The position numbers and the translations under genes are program-made. Below are positions 3,911 through 16,496 of a DNA stretch of 38,922 nucleotides, one piece after another; within the stretch, counting starts at the first letter, position 1; every line of letters begins with the position of its first letter. This DNA comes from a virus. The DNA is taken from UHGV virus genome UHGV-2190349. The stretch is one strand, 5' to 3'. The notes under the pieces are model-generated. The model saw only the letters and a list, made by a program, of their open reading frames with translations. It was not told the origin of the DNA and did no database searches.

Positions 3911-6364
3911 CTACTTTGCTTCGAGATTTCCCACTCGTTCAGCCAGAGCCTCAAACTGCGATAGCAGCCTTTGATGATTACGACGATGAAGGGCAGCCTC
4001 CATCACTAATGCCTCCTCATATCGAATGCCATAGCGTGATCCCGCTTCAACCGCCGGAACTACTACATCGCCAGTCTCTTCATCAAGAACTTCTGGTGAG
4101 CTTTCCCACTTGTCATAACAGAAGAAAGCAAACTGGTGAGGATCAAGTCCATGACGGATAAACGCTTCTTGCGCACGCTGGGCAATAATGCCGACATGCC
4201 AACGGGCTCCATCATCTCCCTTTGCCTCTATACGGTCAATGAACTGGAACTGCACGAAATCTACTTCCGCCCAGGCATCCAGAATATCATCTGCGTACGG
4301 CGCTTCCATTAACCGTGAATCTGTCGTTTGGACGGGTTCGAGAGAACCACGAGCCAGCATCACTGGACGCGATTTTTGCCTTTCATCGGAGGTGACAGTA
4401 TACGCAGCCTGAGTGAATCCGCCCGCAAATGGACTTGAACTGGTACCAACAGTTCTGGTGTTAGCGGCGCTGGGCTGGATATTGCCGTTTACGCTCATGT
4501 TGGTGTTGATATTTACGACAGCAGAAGCAAAGCGTGCAACTTCAGTACCGGCCGACGCTTCAGTTGATGAGACGTAGAGGCCGACAGCATTTTTACTAAG
4601 GACTGCGGTTCGGGCAAATCCACTAGAATCGCGGATCTCTCCGAGCCCAACTTGATAATCGTCAGACTGCGGGCCGGTAACGTTAGTGATGCAATGGAAT
4701 ACGCCACCCATTTGGTTAAACGGATCTGTCACGGATTCAAGATGAAGGCCATCTATAATGATCTTCCCGGTATTGCTACCCCCTGACTCTATGCCTACAG
4801 GGCAATTCCTTAACGTCACGTTGGTTAGTTTTTGATATTTCCTGTTCAGGCGTAAGGCAACATTGGTGTCTCTACACACAATATTGGTTACAGAACACGC
4901 CTCTGCATCACCAAACTGCCGATCACTGGCTCCGGAGGCTGTTGTTGTCTGGTATCCGGTTATTGCGTTAGCGCACTGAATATTTGATCCGTTGCAATAT
5001 CGCTCCTCAATCCACACTGAAGCCCCAATTCTTCCGCCATCATATCCGAGACATGATATATTGCTGTAATTGACGAATGGGGATTTAATATGGAGCCCGA
5101 TGATGTCTGAATCAGTGGATTTAAATCGGTTCTGAATGACTGTGATGTTTGTAACATCACTCCATACACCGCCAGTTCCACGACTGACGGTATCGCCAAT
5201 GATCCCCTGCTTGATACGGACGCCAGCGCCGGGCGCTCCGACGTTACCAAAGTCTGACACATAAACGTTCGATACCTTCGGCGCCAATGACATTACGTCA
5301 ACGCCTGCCCAAGGGTGGGCTGGCTCGTCAAGTTGCCCGAAGTTGAAAACGAAGATGTTATTTAATTGAAACGCGCGACTGACAGACCCATTATCCTTAA
5401 TGTCGATACCATCTGCGCCGGTGTTTTCAGACCAGAATCCGTCGATGCTGCAGCCCTTATACCCGCCATTCTGAAGACCCAAGGCATAATGAGAGCAGTT
5501 CTTTACCTTGAGGCCGCGAATTGTAAGCCCCTCGATTCCTGCTCCGACAATGCCTTCAGTTTGCCGGGCGTAAGGAGTACCATTCCATAAGTAATTCCCG
5601 TCGATACAAATATCTTGAAGGCCGACGCCCCTTACTTTTGTGGTGCCGTTTTCGAGCGGTGGCTTTGACCACTGTATTACCCCATATGCAGCATCTGTGT
5701 TGTAAGCTCTTATAGTAGTAGAGTTCCATCCCTGCCCACGGAGAATAATGTTGTCAAATGGGATGCGCAAAGCAGCAACGTTTAACGTTGCGTTGGCAGA
5801 GCTAAATTCAGTCGGATCCTGATGCACCATGTATAAGGGCCGCGGGAATACAATCGTGCCCCCGCCGGCTGCACTGAGTTCCTGCGCCTTCTGCATTATC
5901 AGTCTTGCGTTCTGCAGGGCGACAACCTGGCTAACAACCCCAGGGATTACGCCAAATGAATCAGCGGTTATTTCAATGCCACCAATTAATGACGAGCCGG
6001 TACTGGAGCTTAATCTCTGGACAAAAGAAAACGGATCAACCAGGGAGCAATTTTCAAAATAGTATTGCTGAGCCCCATAAGCATCGTAAACAGCCATGCT
6101 GTAATCACTTTCAGTGACTATGGTTACAACCTGGCCATTATATACTGGGTAACCTGAGGAATTAATTTTAACTGGCTGGCTGATCTGCACCAGGGAGCCA
6201 TTTTCATTCCTGAAATAAACCGCTACCCTATTGGCTGGATTTGTTGGATCCGTGTCAGGAACACCAACATAAATATTACCGTTTGCGATAGCTTTAAAGC
6301 TTCTCGGCGTAATAAATGGGATGTACGGCATTGTTACTTGCTGGTTGGCAATGATATCTGGCAT
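3911..6364 (-). CDS. Tailspike protein with P22 gp9-like N-terminal head-binding domain and C-terminal intramolecular-chaperone (peptidase S74-like) domain
   Basis: Start set at internal ATG (MPDIIANQQ...) preceded by GGAGA; N-terminus aligns by eye with the P22 tailspike head-binding domain (RSFKA.ANG.IY.G..DTDP.NPAN); C-terminal ~159 aa begins with SDERQK (Ser-x4-Lys autocleavage motif). Confidence 0.9.
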   Translation of the reverse strand: MPDIIANQQVTMPYIPFITPRSFKAIANGNIYVGVPDTDPTNPANRVAVYFRNENGSLVQISQPVKINSSGYPVYNGQVVTIVTESDYSMAVYDAYGAQQYYFENCSLVDPFSFVQRLSSSTGSSLIGGIEITADSFGVIPGVVSQVVALQNARLIMQKAQELSAAGGGTIVFPRPLYMVHQDPTEFSSANATLNVAALRIPFDNIILRGQGWNSTTIRAYNTDAAYGVIQWSKPPLENGTTKVRGVGLQDICIDGNYLWNGTPYARQTEGIVGAGIEGLTIRGLKVKNCSHYALGLQNGGYKGCSIDGFWSENTGADGIDIKDNGSVSRAFQLNNIFVFNFGQLDEPAHPWAGVDVMSLAPKVSNVYVSDFGNVGAPGAGVRIKQGIIGDTVSRGTGGVWSDVTNITVIQNRFKSTDSDIIGLHIKSPFVNYSNISCLGYDGGRIGASVWIEERYCNGSNIQCANAITGYQTTTASGASDRQFGDAEACSVTNIVCRDTNVALRLNRKYQKLTNVTLRNCPVGIESGGSNTGKIIIDGLHLESVTDPFNQMGGVFHCITNVTGPQSDDYQVGLGEIRDSSGFARTAVLSKNAVGLYVSSTEASAGTEVARFASAVVNINTNMSVNGNIQPSAANTRTVGTSSSPFAGGFTQAAYTVTSDERQKSRPVMLARGSLEPVQTTDSRLMEAPYADDILDAWAEVDFVQFQFIDRIEAKGDDGARWHVGIIAQRAQEAFIRHGLDPHQFAFFCYDKWESSPEVLDEETGDVVVPAVEAGSRYGIRYEEALVMEAALHRRNHQRLLSQFEALAERVGNLEAK

Positions 6365-6411
6365 TTGCTGTTCTCCAGGTGCAGAAAAGCCGCACAAGCT
6401 AAAACTTGCGC

Positions 6412-6426
6412 AGCGTGGCTACGGTT
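6412..6426. repeat. Direct repeat copy 1 (AGCGTGGCTACGGTT)
   Basis: Identical 15-mer recurs at 6522..6536, flanking the palindrome. Confidence 0.7.
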
Positions 6427-6476
6427 AGTTTTTTGTGATAAAACAACTTTTTCGGAAGTTATTTTGTTCGCTTTTC

Positions 6477-6499
6477 GACCTACACTTTTTGTGTAGGTC
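6477..6499. promoter_or_regulatory. Perfect 9-bp-arm palindrome (GACCTACAC-TTTTT-GTGTAGGTC); candidate Mnt-type operator in the mnt/tailspike divergent intergenic region
   Basis: Read directly from sequence; sits between divergent mnt and tailspike starts; no U-tract on either strand, so not a typical terminator. Confidence 0.4.
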
Positions 6500-6521
6500 T
6501 CTCCTTCAAGCTCATTGCCTA

Positions 6522-6536
6522 AGCGTGGCTACGGTT
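6522..6536. repeat. Direct repeat copy 2 (AGCGTGGCTACGGTT)
   Basis: Identical to 6412..6426. Confidence 0.7.
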
Positions 6537-6622
6537 GGTATTTGTTGCATACCGAGACGGTACCATTGTTGATTTGTACAGTAGGTTTTACGATGCCATT
6601 CCACCCATTTGGTGAGGCATTG

Positions 6623-6886
6623 ATGATGTACAGCAAATACGATGAGGCGCAGTTCCACTTGAGGCTTACGCACGAGTTGCACGCTAAGATTAAGCAGCGT
6701 GCGAAGATGAATAACAGGTCGCTGAACTCAGAGATAATTGCAGCGATTGAAGAATCATTGGATAAACAAAGCTCTGCATCAGTTTACATTGACGATGCAG
6801 AGCGTATGGCAGAACAACAATCTGATATGGTTAAGAAAATTGTCTTTGATACGCTCAAGGAGCTATATAAAAAAGACTGCAACTAA
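6623..6886 (+). CDS. mnt: Mnt-like ribbon-helix-helix repressor (immI-type), orphan with no arc/ant
   Basis: Start at internal ATG with GGTGAGG Shine-Dalgarno; product strongly resembles P22 Mnt (NNRSLNSEIIAAIEESL...DDAERMAEQQSDMVKKIVFDTLKELYKK). Confidence 0.85.
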   Translation: MMYSKYDEAQFHLRLTHELHAKIKQRAKMNNRSLNSEIIAAIEESLDKQSSASVYIDDAERMAEQQSDMVKKIVFDTLKELYKKDCN

Positions 6887-6975
6887 CCATCCATTACGGA
6901 GGATTTATGCAAAGAGATATGCTGAATATTGCATTCTACATATTTGGTTTTTGCACTTTCCTGGTGTTTGCAAAG

Positions 6976-8973
6976 CTATTCTGACAACGCATCAGACTTA
7001 GCGCCTTGGGTCAGCGCGTTAATTGCCTTTTGTGCCTGCTGCAAGGCTTTCTCAAACGCTGTTGATCCGCGTTGGGTGTTTGCCATTCGGAGCATTGCAT
7101 TTCTGAATGGCTCGCTCTCATAGGCGCGAGCAAGAAGTCCGTAGCTTACTGCTGCGCCAGTTGTCGCCGGGTTCATTGCCGTCCCATACCCAATAATGAA
7201 CGGGATAGTTTGCTGCCCTGTGGGTGTTGTTACTGCCGCTTTTGCAGCCTGCTGCGTGGATTGCAGGTAGTTTTTTAATCCTTTCAGATAAGCAGCGTCC
7301 TGCCCCTTAAATGTGATGCCAGTCTGGTTTTGCAGGATATTAAGCTGCCGAAGGAACTGGTCAGGGGATCCACCTGATTTCTCCATCGCCTTTCCAATGA
7401 TGCCATTGCGCATTTGCGCCCTGCCAACACGGCCAACTGAGTTGTACAGCGTCTTAATTTCCGATTTGTTCTTGCTGAATAGCATGTTGTTGACAACTTC
7501 CGGAGTAAGATCTCCTTTAATGAGAACATTCTTCAGCCGGGTATTCTTTAGTTTCGCCGCTTCGTCAGCGTAGACGGCATTGGCCTGCTGATATTTACGG
7601 AGAGTATCGTTGCCAAGATTCTGACCAATGGCACCATTGATATCGTCGGTCATCGCCTTGTAAACGCGCTGAATGGCAGCATCGGAACGGTTTGGTAACA
7701 CTGGTCGCTCACCCTTCACGTCCATTCTGAACTGGCTGCGCAGATCGCTTAATTGCTTCAAGTCCAGATTTACCGGACCATCAGGGCCAGCATTGCGAAC
7801 AAGCTCATCACGATATGACTGAAGTTTTGAAATGGTCTCGTTATCAGCGACCTTACCAAGCTTCTGCAGATTAGATATCTCGGTATCAATCTGCTGAATT
7901 GCTCGCGCAGGATGAATGTTTACTCCAGCCATAGCATTCTGAACCTGCTCCAGTCGATTACCGGCGGCACGACGAATTCCTGATGTTTTCGCTTTAAGGC
8001 TGTCAATAACAACTGCTGGATCATACTCACCGAATTTATCAGCAAATCTCTGCACCAACTGGCTTCTCGCTTCCTGTTGCGTTGCTCTCATTCCGCTTGT
8101 GCCAGCCAGGGGGATATTTTCCGCTGTCGTCTGCGCCATTTTCCCGACGCGGGAAGTAGGCTGTAACAGGTCTGTGGTGTGCAGAGGAACTCCTTCACGC
8201 TCTGCAAATCTGATAGCCTGCTGCGCTTCTGGCGCAATAGCACCACGAACGCCACGATAAGCAGCACCTAATCCACGTCCGGCAGCGTTAATAGCACCGC
8301 CAGCCAGCACACCAACGCCTAAATCGGTGGCGAGGGCTTCCGCATCATCTTTCGCACTATTTGCAGCAAGTGATCCAACTGCGTTTTCAGCGAGAAGACG
8401 AGTTGCCCCCTGAGCAATTCGACCAGCAAGTGTTGGTGCCTGTGTTGCCGCTCTCTCAATGCCAGCAGGAGTGAGGTAAGGCAATGCCTCAGCAAATACC
8501 CTTCCCTCTGTAGTTTGTGGAGTCAGCGCGCCTTGCTGAAGGCCAAAGTCCTGCTCTAATCCCTGCGTTGTTACTCGTGGCGCTGGTTGATATGTACCAT
8601 CACCAATACCGAGTTTACCGCCAGCCCATGCCGCCGCGCTTGTTACAGCATCGGCAACTGATGCAGGTATGTTTGCCACGTTCACGCCAGCCTGTACCAG
8701 TCCGCGACCAGTCTCTTTTACTGCTTCGCCAAGATCAGACATAAATCCACTTTGCTGTGGTTGTTGCTGTGCTACTGGCTGTTGTGTCTCCACTGGCTGC
8801 ACTGATGGCAATGGATAGGCAGCATAGAAAGCTTGCTTAGCCTGCTCTGCATTTTCTCCGGCTTGCGGGGCCACGACTTCATTGAAGTATTGCTCCTGAG
8901 CCTGCGCTTTTTGTTCTGGTGCTAACGCCTGATACTGTGGAGAGGCGATAACATCTTTCCATGCTTTAGCCAT
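6976..8973 (-). CDS. Internal virion/DNA-ejection protein (P22 gp16 position)
   Basis: 665-aa ORF at the end of the P22-order virion gene string; low-complexity Ala/Gln-rich sequence. Confidence 0.7.
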   Translation of the reverse strand: MAKAWKDVIASPQYQALAPEQKAQAQEQYFNEVVAPQAGENAEQAKQAFYAAYPLPSVQPVETQQPVAQQQPQQSGFMSDLGEAVKETGRGLVQAGVNVANIPASVADAVTSAAAWAGGKLGIGDGTYQPAPRVTTQGLEQDFGLQQGALTPQTTEGRVFAEALPYLTPAGIERAATQAPTLAGRIAQGATRLLAENAVGSLAANSAKDDAEALATDLGVGVLAGGAINAAGRGLGAAYRGVRGAIAPEAQQAIRFAEREGVPLHTTDLLQPTSRVGKMAQTTAENIPLAGTSGMRATQQEARSQLVQRFADKFGEYDPAVVIDSLKAKTSGIRRAAGNRLEQVQNAMAGVNIHPARAIQQIDTEISNLQKLGKVADNETISKLQSYRDELVRNAGPDGPVNLDLKQLSDLRSQFRMDVKGERPVLPNRSDAAIQRVYKAMTDDINGAIGQNLGNDTLRKYQQANAVYADEAAKLKNTRLKNVLIKGDLTPEVVNNMLFSKNKSEIKTLYNSVGRVGRAQMRNGIIGKAMEKSGGSPDQFLRQLNILQNQTGITFKGQDAAYLKGLKNYLQSTQQAAKAAVTTPTGQQTIPFIIGYGTAMNPATTGAAVSYGLLARAYESEPFRNAMLRMANTQRGSTAFEKALQQAQKAINALTQGAKSDALSE

Positions 8974-14330: not shown

Positions 14331-15584
14331 TTACTGCCCGGCAATAACGATGCCCGTATATTCAGGAACAAGTACAGAGCAACCGTACAGAGTGGTGAAA
14401 CGAGCAGTGGTTACGCCTTTGATGTGGTCGAAGGCGTAAGACATGATCAGCGTAGCGCCCTGCTCGGTGGTTGCTGTCATTACCTGTGGACCCTGACCAG
14501 TCGGGAACGCTAGTTTGCCGTACATCAGCTCAACAGAACCATCAGCCCAGAACAGGTTAGCAGGTGCTGCGTTCTTGTTGAGAATGGTGATTGCTGCTGA
14601 TTCTGCCGGTTTGGCATCGACGTTTGCATATGGACGACTCGCAACATCGGTATTTTCAACAGGGAGAATCTTTGGAGAGATTGTTACGGTAGTTCCGCTA
14701 ACAGCCAGAACACGGAATACCTGCGGTTGCCCGGTGGTATCTTTTGTGATCTGGTGTACGGAATTCACACCGGCAATGGTGAACGCATCACCAACCTGCA
14801 AGCCAGATGCAGATACCGTAATAGTCCCCTGTCGGTTATCAACTGGCATACCATTTGAATCTTTCGCTTCAACCTTGTGTTCAGGTTGGCCTGATACTGT
14901 CAAGGATTCAGCGCTTCCTTTCGGTAATCGACCAGAAATATCGGTCTTGTAGCTATCAAAGGAAGCAACCGGAGGGATCTGCGCTTTTTCGTATGCTGTC
15001 AGGGTTGCGCCCTGAGCGTAGGCACGGTGACCAAGCTCGCCAGCAAGGTCTTTGTAGTTGAAGGGGTTCCAGAAAGAGCGACGGTTGATACCCTGCGGTA
15101 CACCAATCGCCGTCATGGTGGCATCAATACCTGCCGCACAGTTCCACAAATCACGGCCCTGTGTACCTGTGGTTGAGTCAGACATTGTGATCACGTTAGT
15201 AGCACGCTGCGTAACCATGGAAATCAGGTCAGAGTCAATCTGTGCAGCAAGGCGCATACCTGCGGCGCGACCAGCTTCAGTTTTATGCTCAGGGTCACGC
15301 ATTTCACGCGCATCCAGAGTGTACAGAATGTTTTTCGGCTCCTTGAACACAGAAGGAACAAGGCGCTGAACCAGTGCTGTAGGCGTTTTGCTGCTGAGAT
15401 CGAGGCCTTCCTCAATGTTCATGTGGTAATGCTGCGGACGATACAGAACATCACCTGCTCGCTGCATTGCTGTATCACCGGGACGGAATTTTTTAGCGTT
15501 ACGGGAAACTACGCAGGCGGCCTCAAAGCCTTCAACGTAGTTTTCGAACATGATTTCAAGGTCTTTTGCTAATTGGTTAGCCAT
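14331..15584 (-). CDS. Major capsid (coat) protein, P22 gp5-like
   Basis: 417-aa ORF following scaffold gene; size and position. Confidence 0.85.
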   Translation of the reverse strand: MANQLAKDLEIMFENYVEGFEAACVVSRNAKKFRPGDTAMQRAGDVLYRPQHYHMNIEEGLDLSSKTPTALVQRLVPSVFKEPKNILYTLDAREMRDPEHKTEAGRAAGMRLAAQIDSDLISMVTQRATNVITMSDSTTGTQGRDLWNCAAGIDATMTAIGVPQGINRRSFWNPFNYKDLAGELGHRAYAQGATLTAYEKAQIPPVASFDSYKTDISGRLPKGSAESLTVSGQPEHKVEAKDSNGMPVDNRQGTITVSASGLQVGDAFTIAGVNSVHQITKDTTGQPQVFRVLAVSGTTVTISPKILPVENTDVASRPYANVDAKPAESAAITILNKNAAPANLFWADGSVELMYGKLAFPTGQGPQVMTATTEQGATLIMSYAFDHIKGVTTARFTTLYGCSVLVPEYTGIVIAGQ

Positions 15585-15602: not shown

Positions 15603-16496
15603 TTATTTTTTTGCCTTTTTAGCGGCGAAATACGGCGTCCAGTCACCAGTTTCCAGCGCCTTGGCTTTCAATTTGTCGAGGTTGTTGATTACTGCGCCGT
15701 TGCTCCCCTTAACTGTCGGGGTTGTGGCTGCCGTGGTTTTTGCTTTTGGCATGATTCTGGCCTTCGATTCGATACGTTCCAGCAGACGACCAATTGCTAC
15801 GGGGTTGGTAGCTTCTGCCAGTTGCTTGCGCAGTTCAGCGTTGCGGCCGAGTGCCAGAACAACGATTTCCGGCTTCTCTGACTCAAACAAGATCGCGTTT
15901 TGTGTCTCGATGGGGATTTCCTCGAGTACGGCCTGTTCTGCTTCCTGATAGCCAGGAACCTTGAGAGCCTTAACACGTTGCTGATATTTGGATAATCGCT
16001 CTTGATAGGCAGCCTGAAGCTCCTGCTCCTTCTGCTTGCGAGCCATCTCCTGTTGCTGGTACTTGCCGTTATCCTCTGCCCACTTAGCCATGCGTTGCTG
16101 GTAGATTTCTTCATCGAAACCGATGTCCTCATCATCCAGTTTTGGCATTCGCGGTGGTTGAGTGATTACCGGCTGCTGCTCGACGGGTTTCTGAGACTGA
16201 CGCATCATCTCTTTCAGCTCGCGGTCTTTCTCTTTAATCGTCTTGCGCAGGTGTTTTACCAGTCCATGCTCTGCGCCATCTTCGCTGGTTGGCGAATCCA
16301 GCTTTTCGTCACCAAAGTAGAATTCCTGTTCTGATTCGTCGTCATCAGTTTCAGTAGCTTCCTCTGCATCATTGCCGGAGGACTCACTGCCATCTTCTGT
16401 TTCGACTTCTTCAGCCAGTTCGACATCATCAGGAATCTGCTCTGACGCGTCGGTTTCGATTTCAACTTCTGGTGTGTTTTCTGCCATCTGGTCCAT
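15603..16496 (-). CDS. Scaffolding protein (P22 gp8-like)
   Basis: 297-aa acidic, helix-rich ORF between portal and coat genes. Confidence 0.8.
   Translation of the reverse strand: MDQMAENTPEVEIETDASEQIPDDVELAEEVETEDGSESSGNDAEEATETDDDESEQEFYFGDEKLDSPTSEDGAEHGLVKHLRKTIKEKDRELKEMMRQSQKPVEQQPVITQPPRMPKLDDEDIGFDEEIYQQRMAKWAEDNGKYQQQEMARKQKEQELQAAYQERLSKYQQRVKALKVPGYQEAEQAVLEEIPIETQNAILFESEKPEIVVLALGRNAELRKQLAEATNPVAIGRLLERIESKARIMPKAKTTAATTPTVKGSNGAVINNLDKLKAKALETGDWTPYFAAKKAKK

Follow-up and report, generated by a model that had tools for sequence, protein, structure and literature searches.

The window, the whole 38,922-nucleotide stretch of viral DNA analysed here (UHGV-2190349), carries an mnt homologue (6623..6886, plus strand) that is flanked by gene 16 and the tailspike gene and runs opposite to the late operon. 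The tailspike gene (3911..6364, minus strand) starts at an ATG at 6364 with a P22-type head-binding N-terminus (MPDIIANQQV...) and is preceded by the Shine-Dalgarno sequence GGAG (6376-6373, minus strand). The mnt ATG, at 6623 or 6626 on the plus strand, follows the Shine-Dalgarno sequence GGTGAGG (6611-6617, plus strand), and the spacer between the two genes measures 258 bp (6365-6622). The Mnt homologue joins an N-terminal Arc/RHH domain with the recognition strand QFHLRL (PF03869, E=7.8e-13, residues 8-50) to an Mnt tetramerisation C-terminus (PF11423, E=3.4e-14, residues 58-83), in which DDAERMAEQQSDMVKKIVFDTLKELYKK corresponds to P22 NDAERLADEQSELVKKMVFDTLKDLYKK. Both Pfam domains and 49% identity to P22 Mnt bear out the assignment made in an earlier note on this DNA. 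The note also held that mnt, divergent from the tailspike gene, is all that is left of the immI region, and tblastn indeed finds no arc or ant homologue elsewhere in the window.

The spacer contains the palindrome GACCTACAC-TTTTT-GTGTAGGTC, with arms of nine nucleotides each (6477-6499), and two minus-strand copies of the sequence AGCGTGGCTACGGTT, repeat 1 at 6412-6426 and repeat 2 at 6522-6536. All three positions are exactly those given in the earlier note. The repeats are identical over 15 nt and 91% identical over 22 nt, their starts are 110 nt apart, and no further copy occurs in the window even if three mismatches are allowed. Both kinds of feature exceed chance: when 6365-6622 was shuffled 2000 times with dinucleotides preserved, 0.95% of the shuffles gave an inverted repeat with arms of at least 9 and a loop of at most 10, and none gave a direct repeat of at least 15. 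When 596 Gb of genomes were scanned with the 15-mer CAGCRTGGCTACGGT, nearly all hits were chance matches, the pattern being too short. Folded as RNA, the palindrome reaches -15 kcal/mol on either strand (RNAfold, z about -7). It was rejected as an intrinsic terminator, since neither strand has a U run.

The tailspike leader (6365-6411, minus strand) has an extra terminator-like hairpin. A pattern scan places it at 6379..6414 on the minus strand as GCUGCGCAAG-UUUU-AGCUUGUGCGGC followed by UUUUCU, and RNAfold assigns it -24.7 kcal/mol (z=-2.2). Comparison of leaders indicates that a 17-nt insertion relative to the consensus P22-type leader created this hairpin; of the window and P22 leaders, only the former has the insertion. 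The consensus promoter scan found no promoter-like site directed at the tailspike gene. Rfam 15, sar included, gives no match within 6365-6622 even at E values up to 10, and nothing relevant in the whole window at gathering thresholds. The sar model matches only P22.

A cassette shared with P22

A blastn search of phage genomes aligns window positions 6409-6535 with P22 16049-16175 at 95.3% identity over 127 bp, and many P22-like Salmonella phages match the same segment. In P22 this segment is flanked by the ant terminator (16012-16035) and gene 9 (start 16204). This ant-gene 9 spacer (NC_002371 16036-16203) is like that of the window in its repeats (GCATGGCTACGGTGAATTTT and GCGTGGCTACGGTGAATTTT), in its 9+9 TTTTT palindrome, and in the position and orientation of these features. 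The P22 palindrome, GACCTACAA-TTTTT-TTGTAGGTC, is one compensated pair (A:T to C:G) apart from that of the window. The flanks differ in that the P22 cassette follows ant and its terminator, whereas the cassette of the window directly follows the mnt control region. The mapped Mnt operator, Arc operator, Pant and Pmnt of P22 are at 14793-14844, 1.2 kb away from this spacer. The note had suggested that the repeats are scars of an arc/ant deletion. They do bracket an antirepressor-family remnant, but P22 has the cassette together with intact arc and ant, and the cassette is therefore not a scar of their loss in this phage.

The repeats have their counterpart at the start of the tailspike leader. 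On the sense strand the repeat reads AA-CCGUAGC-CAC-GCU, and in nearly every P22-type tailspike gene CCGUAGC-CAY-GCUGCGG begins a conserved leader of ~50 nt, which extends to the tailspike ATG. This start is kept whether the mnt control region, the ant-operon terminator (loci L144 and L145) or other sequence (L189-193) adjoins it upstream. RNAfold predicts a 7-bp stem-loop here in the consensus and P22 leaders. Variation in this stem-loop is slight, and the few variants (L145, L147 and L154) are wobble-compatible on the sense strand. Given this conservation, the repeat comprises the leader stem-loop from its 5' arm through the loop to the third nucleotide of its 3' arm; repeat 1 occupies these positions in the leader itself, and repeat 2 is a partial copy of the stem-loop without its 3' arm. 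The repeat also marks the right-hand boundary of the moron. It has ACGGT in common with a dyad at 6550-6562 in the mnt control region. Within each genome the repeat copies are closer to each other than to their orthologues: both copies have GGTT in the window (6412-6433 versus 6522-6543) and GGTG in P22 (2504-2524 versus 2614-2634 of locus L001). This likeness hints at gene conversion or at the history of a recombination joint.

Between the repeats lies a 95-bp relic (6427..6521, minus strand, ~29 codons) of an antirepressor gene. Its translation, NELEGETYTKSVGRKANKITSEKVVLSQK, runs from 6516 down to 6430 on the minus strand, the sense of the tailspike gene and the late operon. The fragment has no start codon and stop codons stand on both sides of its frame, so it is a relic rather than a gene. 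With the cassette alone as query, blastn matches ORF19 of Erwinia phage Midgardsormr38 (97.7% over 44 nt, E=5e-12), as well as APSE-7, a JEP4 gene annotated KilA, ant1 of the P1-like phage JL22 and phiKp_30 gp080. The homology extends to protein level: tblastn aligns the relic with intact antirepressors in one reading frame (E=1e-4), and its translation matches IDELEGETYTKSVGRKNGADIDVITMSIKQ of ORF19 and KDELEGEHYEIFVVQKSNKTTSEKVVMSIKQ of phiKp_30. The parent proteins share an N-terminal domain of ~100 residues (PHROG 1726; also P1 Ant, PHROG 63), which is combined with KilAC or other C-terminal domains. The relic corresponds to about residues 50-78 of this domain in PHROG 1726 and P1 Ant1/Ant2, and it carries the family's palindrome at the conserved position. 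Unlike the intact genes, it stands out of context, downstream of the terminator that ends the intact gene in relatives such as L144. There, an intact PHROG 1726 gene is followed by the terminator that P22 has as Tant, one repeat and the tailspike gene.

In L012 (4787-4897) and L006 (1652-1756), both on the plus strand, an intact PHROG 1726 gene has a sar-like antisense unit at its 5' end. The promoter-like sequence of this unit, GTGACA-17-TACATT or TAAATT with a TG, is located within the first codons; it points antisense, over the ribosome-binding site, towards an intrinsic terminator ~70 nt away. This arrangement is common to an E. coli prophage and an Erwinia phage, and the Rfam sar model does not match it.

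On the mnt side the spacer has different relatives. To the right of 6522 (or 6545), mnt and the region upstream of it are matched by prophages in 359 of 5426 complete E. coli genomes and by phages JEP4, VSe13, Sf101 and IME10. The P22-type homology ends at 6535 and the E. coli prophage homology begins at 6522, so that they overlap exactly on repeat 2. The alignments therefore mark repeat 2 as the joint between the P22-type cassette and the mnt upstream region. Relatives with mnt-side homology have one repeat copy or none between mnt and the tailspike gene. In a set of 80 IMG/VR loci with the closest Mnt, the spacer measures 121 bp and lacks the repeat in 59, and contains one repeat in four; the repeat-relic-repeat arrangement is found in a single locus, a twin of the window. 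A 21-mer from the cassette interior occurs in 10 IMG/VR contigs, and all of those that reach past repeat 2, except the twin, are of the P22 (ant-terminator) type. The order ant terminator, one repeat, gene 9 is found in L144 and L145; ant terminator, repeat 2, relic, repeat 1, gene 9 is the P22 type; mnt, one repeat, gene 9 occurs in L003 and about 40 loci; and the window's own order, mnt, repeat 2, relic, repeat 1, recurs in one IMG/VR contig only. The homology breakpoints on repeat 2 and this rarity thus identify the window as a rare recombinant of an mnt-only moron with a P22-type tailspike leader.

The Mnt control region

The segment from 6537 to 6622 is probably mnt's own control region, with a probable operator at 6550-6562 placed relative to Pmnt as Omnt is in P22. 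The dyad TACCGAGACGGTA (TACCG-AGA-CGGTA, 6550..6562, centre 6556) occurs once in the window. It is present in all 32 distinct upstream sequences that accompany this mnt type, although its right half varies somewhat and the dyad is imperfect in many relatives (TACCGAAATGGTA). Downstream is a putative Pmnt (6566..6594, plus strand), composed of TTGTTG (6566-6571), a 17-nt spacer and TACGAT (6589-6594). It agrees with 7 of 12 consensus positions, below the threshold of the consensus scan, and was read from the sequence and from positional homology with P22 Pmnt. Counted from the dyad centre, the -35 element, the -10 element and the ATG are at +10, +33 and +67, as compared with +10, +33 and +66 from P22 Omnt. 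Because the operator and promoter positions match those of P22, 6550-6562 is the best Mnt operator candidate.

The Mnt/Omnt/Pmnt-Pant region of P22 shares with the window a repressor of RHH and Mnt C-terminal domains and a dyad 66-67 nt upstream of the ATG. The operator sequences themselves, AGGTCCACCGTGGACCT in P22 and TACCG-N3-CGGTA in the window, are unrelated. The recognition strand is HFNFRM in P22 Mnt and QFHLRL here, which fits a target sequence different from that of P22. Unlike P22, the window lacks an arc or ant that Mnt could regulate, and its Pant counterpart is degenerate: the sequence at the homologous position is ATGGCA-17-CAAATC, in which the -10 hexamer is lost (CAAATC, 2/6).

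Twenty nucleotides past the mnt stop, a gene for a hydrophobic peptide of 25 amino acids, MQRDMLNIAFYIFGFCTFLVFAKLF, follows a strong GGAGG Shine-Dalgarno sequence (6907..6984, plus strand). It overlaps the 3' end of the gp16-like gene and is probably co-transcribed with mnt; of 83 loci that carry this mnt type, at least 70 retain it. This gene may represent the true payload of the mnt-only moron. The most likely role of Mnt is to autoregulate a small operon of mnt and this membrane-peptide gene that is expressed in the prophage, and an effect of Mnt on late transcription entering the tailspike gene is possible. The predicted operator and promoter would apply to a tailspike-adjacent Mnt subfamily that is carried by hundreds of E. 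coli prophages.

The E. coli 55989 prophage (L012) and phage JEP4 (L002) each have two Mnt-family genes. Both contain a complete mnt2-arc-ant-ant2(PHROG 1726)-hyp set, followed by a window-type mnt that adjoins the tailspike leader and is convergent with the ant operon. Since they carry both, the window-type mnt is not simply a leftover of an immI deletion.

A palindrome built into an antirepressor gene family

In the frame of the relic, the palindrome reads (GA)G ACC TAC ACA AAA AGT GTA GGT C(GA), or E-T-Y-T-K-S-V-G-R. Its presence there is part of a pattern that covers the gene family. We surveyed antirepressor-family sequences from 80 IMG/VR loci, from the reference phages and from seven distant homologues in metagenomes. 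Of the 61 distinct sequences, 56 contain a palindrome that is perfect over 6 bp or more and whose centre falls on one and the same position, the second base of the third codon past an invariant Tyr. This domain has no other palindrome that recurs and co-varies, and a second hairpin of the relic (about 6440-6465) is not recurrent in the family.

At least eight arm variants exist, and the TAGGTC arms of the window are one of them. The window's GACCTACAC / GTGTAGGTC encode ETYTKSVGR, while GTTTTACAC / GTGTAAAAC give EFYTKSVKP and GCACTACAC / GTGTAGTGC give EHYTKSVVQ. Arms separated by a single nucleotide include GACCTACAAAA-t-TTTTGTAGGTC (ETYKIFVGH), GGGTTACAAAA-c-TTTTGTAACCC (EGYKTFVTP) and ACTACGAAA-t-TTTCGTAGT (EHYEIFVVQ). 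Longer loops are found in CACTACCC-aaaaa-GGGTAGTG (EHYPKRVV) and AACTACACT-aaa-AGTGTAGTT (ENYTKSVV). Among 19 distinct sequences, both sides change in 7 of 11 arm pairs, with 38 doubly changed cells and not one one-sided change. The covariation score is 0.457, compared with 0.131 in shuffles (none of 500 reaches 0.457) and 0.03-0.13 in slid registers. The arm pairs are exclusively Watson-Crick, and G.U intermediates are absent. In 83 database homologues with an ELEGE-type motif, the residue pairs mostly follow the reverse-complement codon rule, with few exceptions; the outer pairs are T-G, G-T, H-V, Y-V, D-V, N-V and F-K, and the inner pairs E-F, K-F, T-S, P-R and T-R. Only the symmetry is conserved, which makes a sequence-specific operator unlikely. 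Inspection for LexA, 434-type and P22 c2-type operators led to the same rejection, as the arms vary across the family and only the structure is kept.

In an AF2 model of the parent domain (pLDDT 81), the residues encoded by the palindrome fall within a loop and the strand that opens a well-ordered beta hairpin. Foldseek against the PDB suggests no family name for this domain (best E=0.09), NCBIfam contains no model for PHROG 1726 or P1 Ant-type antirepressors, and our literature searches found no report of an intragenic palindrome in this antirepressor family. Several open reading frames of the antirepressor family end or shift frame right after the palindrome, as in database proteins P0055, P0064, P0065 and P0091 and in APSE-7 (L008). 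Examples are EFYKIFGLFAI and EFYTKSGFVE, and in APSE-7 an A8 run and a stop. These cases suggest a hotspot of breakpoints or frameshifts at the palindrome or at the A-run beside it.

The palindrome could be a functional hairpin, of RNA or DNA, in the coding sequence of a widespread antirepressor family, under selection so strong that it fixes the residues on both sides, and its survival in the tailspike leader would then reflect a cis function such as control of ant expression, mRNA fate, or service as a recombination or breakpoint site. We regard this as a serious but tentative proposal, with the odds somewhat against it. Alternatively, the palindrome may be a self-perpetuating quasipalindrome whose arms evolve in concert by template switching. 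Quasipalindrome template-switch mutagenesis and the concerted evolution of hairpin arms have reportedly been described by Ripley and by Lovett. As in such mutagenesis, the arms of the family palindrome change together and form only Watson-Crick pairs, and a compensated change of this type occurs even in a non-coding relic. At least as well as selection on structure, template switching would fit the restriction to Watson-Crick pairs, the compensated pair of the non-coding relic in P22, and the single mismatches that stand uncompensated in the palindrome stem of relic copies L220 and L222. It would leave unexplained why the palindrome arose in a well-ordered part of the protein. A covarying coding palindrome that fixes residue pairs is a natural test case for hairpin selection versus concerted template switching.

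Interpretation of the spacer

The earlier note took the palindrome, alone or with the repeats, for the operator through which the orphan Mnt controls a Pant-derived tailspike promoter. In its favour are the perfect dyad symmetry, the location in the mnt-tailspike spacer and arms that include TAGGTC/GACCTA, the outer hexamer of the P22 Omnt half-sites. However, the half-sites in the relic are everted and their spacing is unlike that of Omnt, the arms are just one of the family's variants, and P22 has the same cassette far from its mapped operator. The cassette and its palindrome accompany three Mnt recognition strands (HFNFRM, QVNLRL and QFHLRL). The palindrome is also found inside intact ant genes of P1-like and APSE phages, in the absence of mnt, and it is missing from 79 of the 80 loci with this exact mnt type. 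Its centre (6488) is 135 nt upstream of the ATG, beyond repeat 2 and within P22-derived DNA. The proposed promoter fares no better, since the -10 hexamer of the Pant counterpart is lost, no promoter-like site faces the tailspike gene and the terminator-like hairpin lies between. The repeats were rejected as additional Mnt binding sites or half-sites because they are absent from the 59 loci noted above that have this Mnt. An operator at the palindrome is thus very unlikely.

The cassette could instead be a selected, cis-acting RNA element of the late/tailspike mRNA that tunes tailspike dosage through processing, stability, a pause or a roadblock. The sense strand of 6365-6545 is more stable than all 200 shuffles (z=-3.6) and forms three hairpins, of which that of the palindrome is strong even alone. 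Conservation of the cassette reaches 95-98% among Salmonella and E. coli phages with differing flanks, the P22-window difference is compensated, and an effect of the P22 ant moron on transcription into gene 9 has been proposed (PMC2629481). On the other hand, most phages with the same tailspike leader lack the cassette, the relic stems of L220 and L222 tolerate mismatches, Rfam offers no match, and recent horizontal spread would give the same level of conservation. We consider such an element improbable, although less so than the operator. A segment of ~95 bp between direct repeats of 15-21 nt, present or absent at an otherwise identical site, would be expected from a miniature mobile element or from an insertion of the integrase type with duplication of a 15-bp target. 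Terminal inverted repeats are absent, however, the interior is a gene fragment, and in our searches the cassette is found only upstream of P22-type tailspike genes and never elsewhere. To our knowledge, a duplication of 15-21 bp also lies outside the target-site lengths of known transposases, and we give mobility as little credence as the operator.

The reading that we prefer, with a probability of about 0.78, is that the spacer is a three-piece mosaic within the hyper-variable "ant moron" of P22-like phages, in which the mnt control region, an antirepressor-relic cassette shared with P22 and the tailspike leader are joined. The P22-shared cassette (6412-6536) would be a dead antirepressor fragment between two 15-nt copies of the leader stem-loop, and its palindrome would have been inherited from the parent gene, where the feature is family-wide. 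The repeat pair may have arisen by tandem duplication or unequal crossover, with a junction of leader stem-loop and mid-gene sequence, followed by deletions; this scenario would require about three events. The cassette would have reached its present place when a P22-type donor and an mnt-only phage recombined within repeat 2, and recombination between the repeats would delete it to give the common single-repeat form. The cassette would be transcribed only within the late mRNA. We infer that it has no role and is neutral debris, although its conservation or the compensated pair that distinguishes P22 from the window could reflect selection on structure instead.

The ant moron is the variable DNA that separates gene 16 from the tailspike gene (Villafane et al. 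2008, PMC2629481), for which mnt-only versions and degraded ant genes have been reported in P22-like phages (PMC2629481). The mnt-only versions are those of ST64T, ST104, Para1 and phage L (for phage L, PMC8022706). Like these morons, the window has mnt and a small gene of unknown function but no arc or ant (PMC2629481, PMC8022706), and its orphan mnt beside the tailspike gene is a known, common variant. Unlike them, its Mnt belongs to a different subfamily (QFHLRL), which adjoins the tailspike leader in every locus examined, and its relic derives from a PHROG 1726/P1-Ant-type gene rather than from P22 ant. A joint between the mnt control region and the P22 ant-gene 9 spacer is rare, but nothing about its mechanism is out of the ordinary, and the sole unusual point is the palindrome that is built into a whole antirepressor gene family. 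The mnt-tailspike spacer is another recombinant version of a region known for rapid gene gain and loss. Recognizing it as such avoids annotating the palindrome as an operator and the repeats as regulatory sites. It also reveals that the P22 ant-gene 9 spacer contains a fragment of a second antirepressor gene, which records the remodelling of the moron.

Some minor observations concern the tailspike gene itself. Its C-terminus (...DRIEAKGDDGARWHVGIIAQRAQEAF..., 3911 to about 4400, minus strand) looks like a self-cleaving, intramolecular-chaperone domain of the endosialidase type, and a close match to the receptor-binding part is absent among the phage genomes searched. In several IMG/VR prophages, the tailspike gene (MTDIT/MSDIT...) carries, a few codons past its start, an inserted ORF on the opposite strand that resembles an HNH/AP2-type homing endonuclease (...IDHIDRNRRNNAISNLRDVS...GKNITLGRFNTIDEAAIAYKAANMVADHLLSR). 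This ORF is present in L144 (3840-4382, minus strand) and also in L232, L242, L250, L254, L257 and others.
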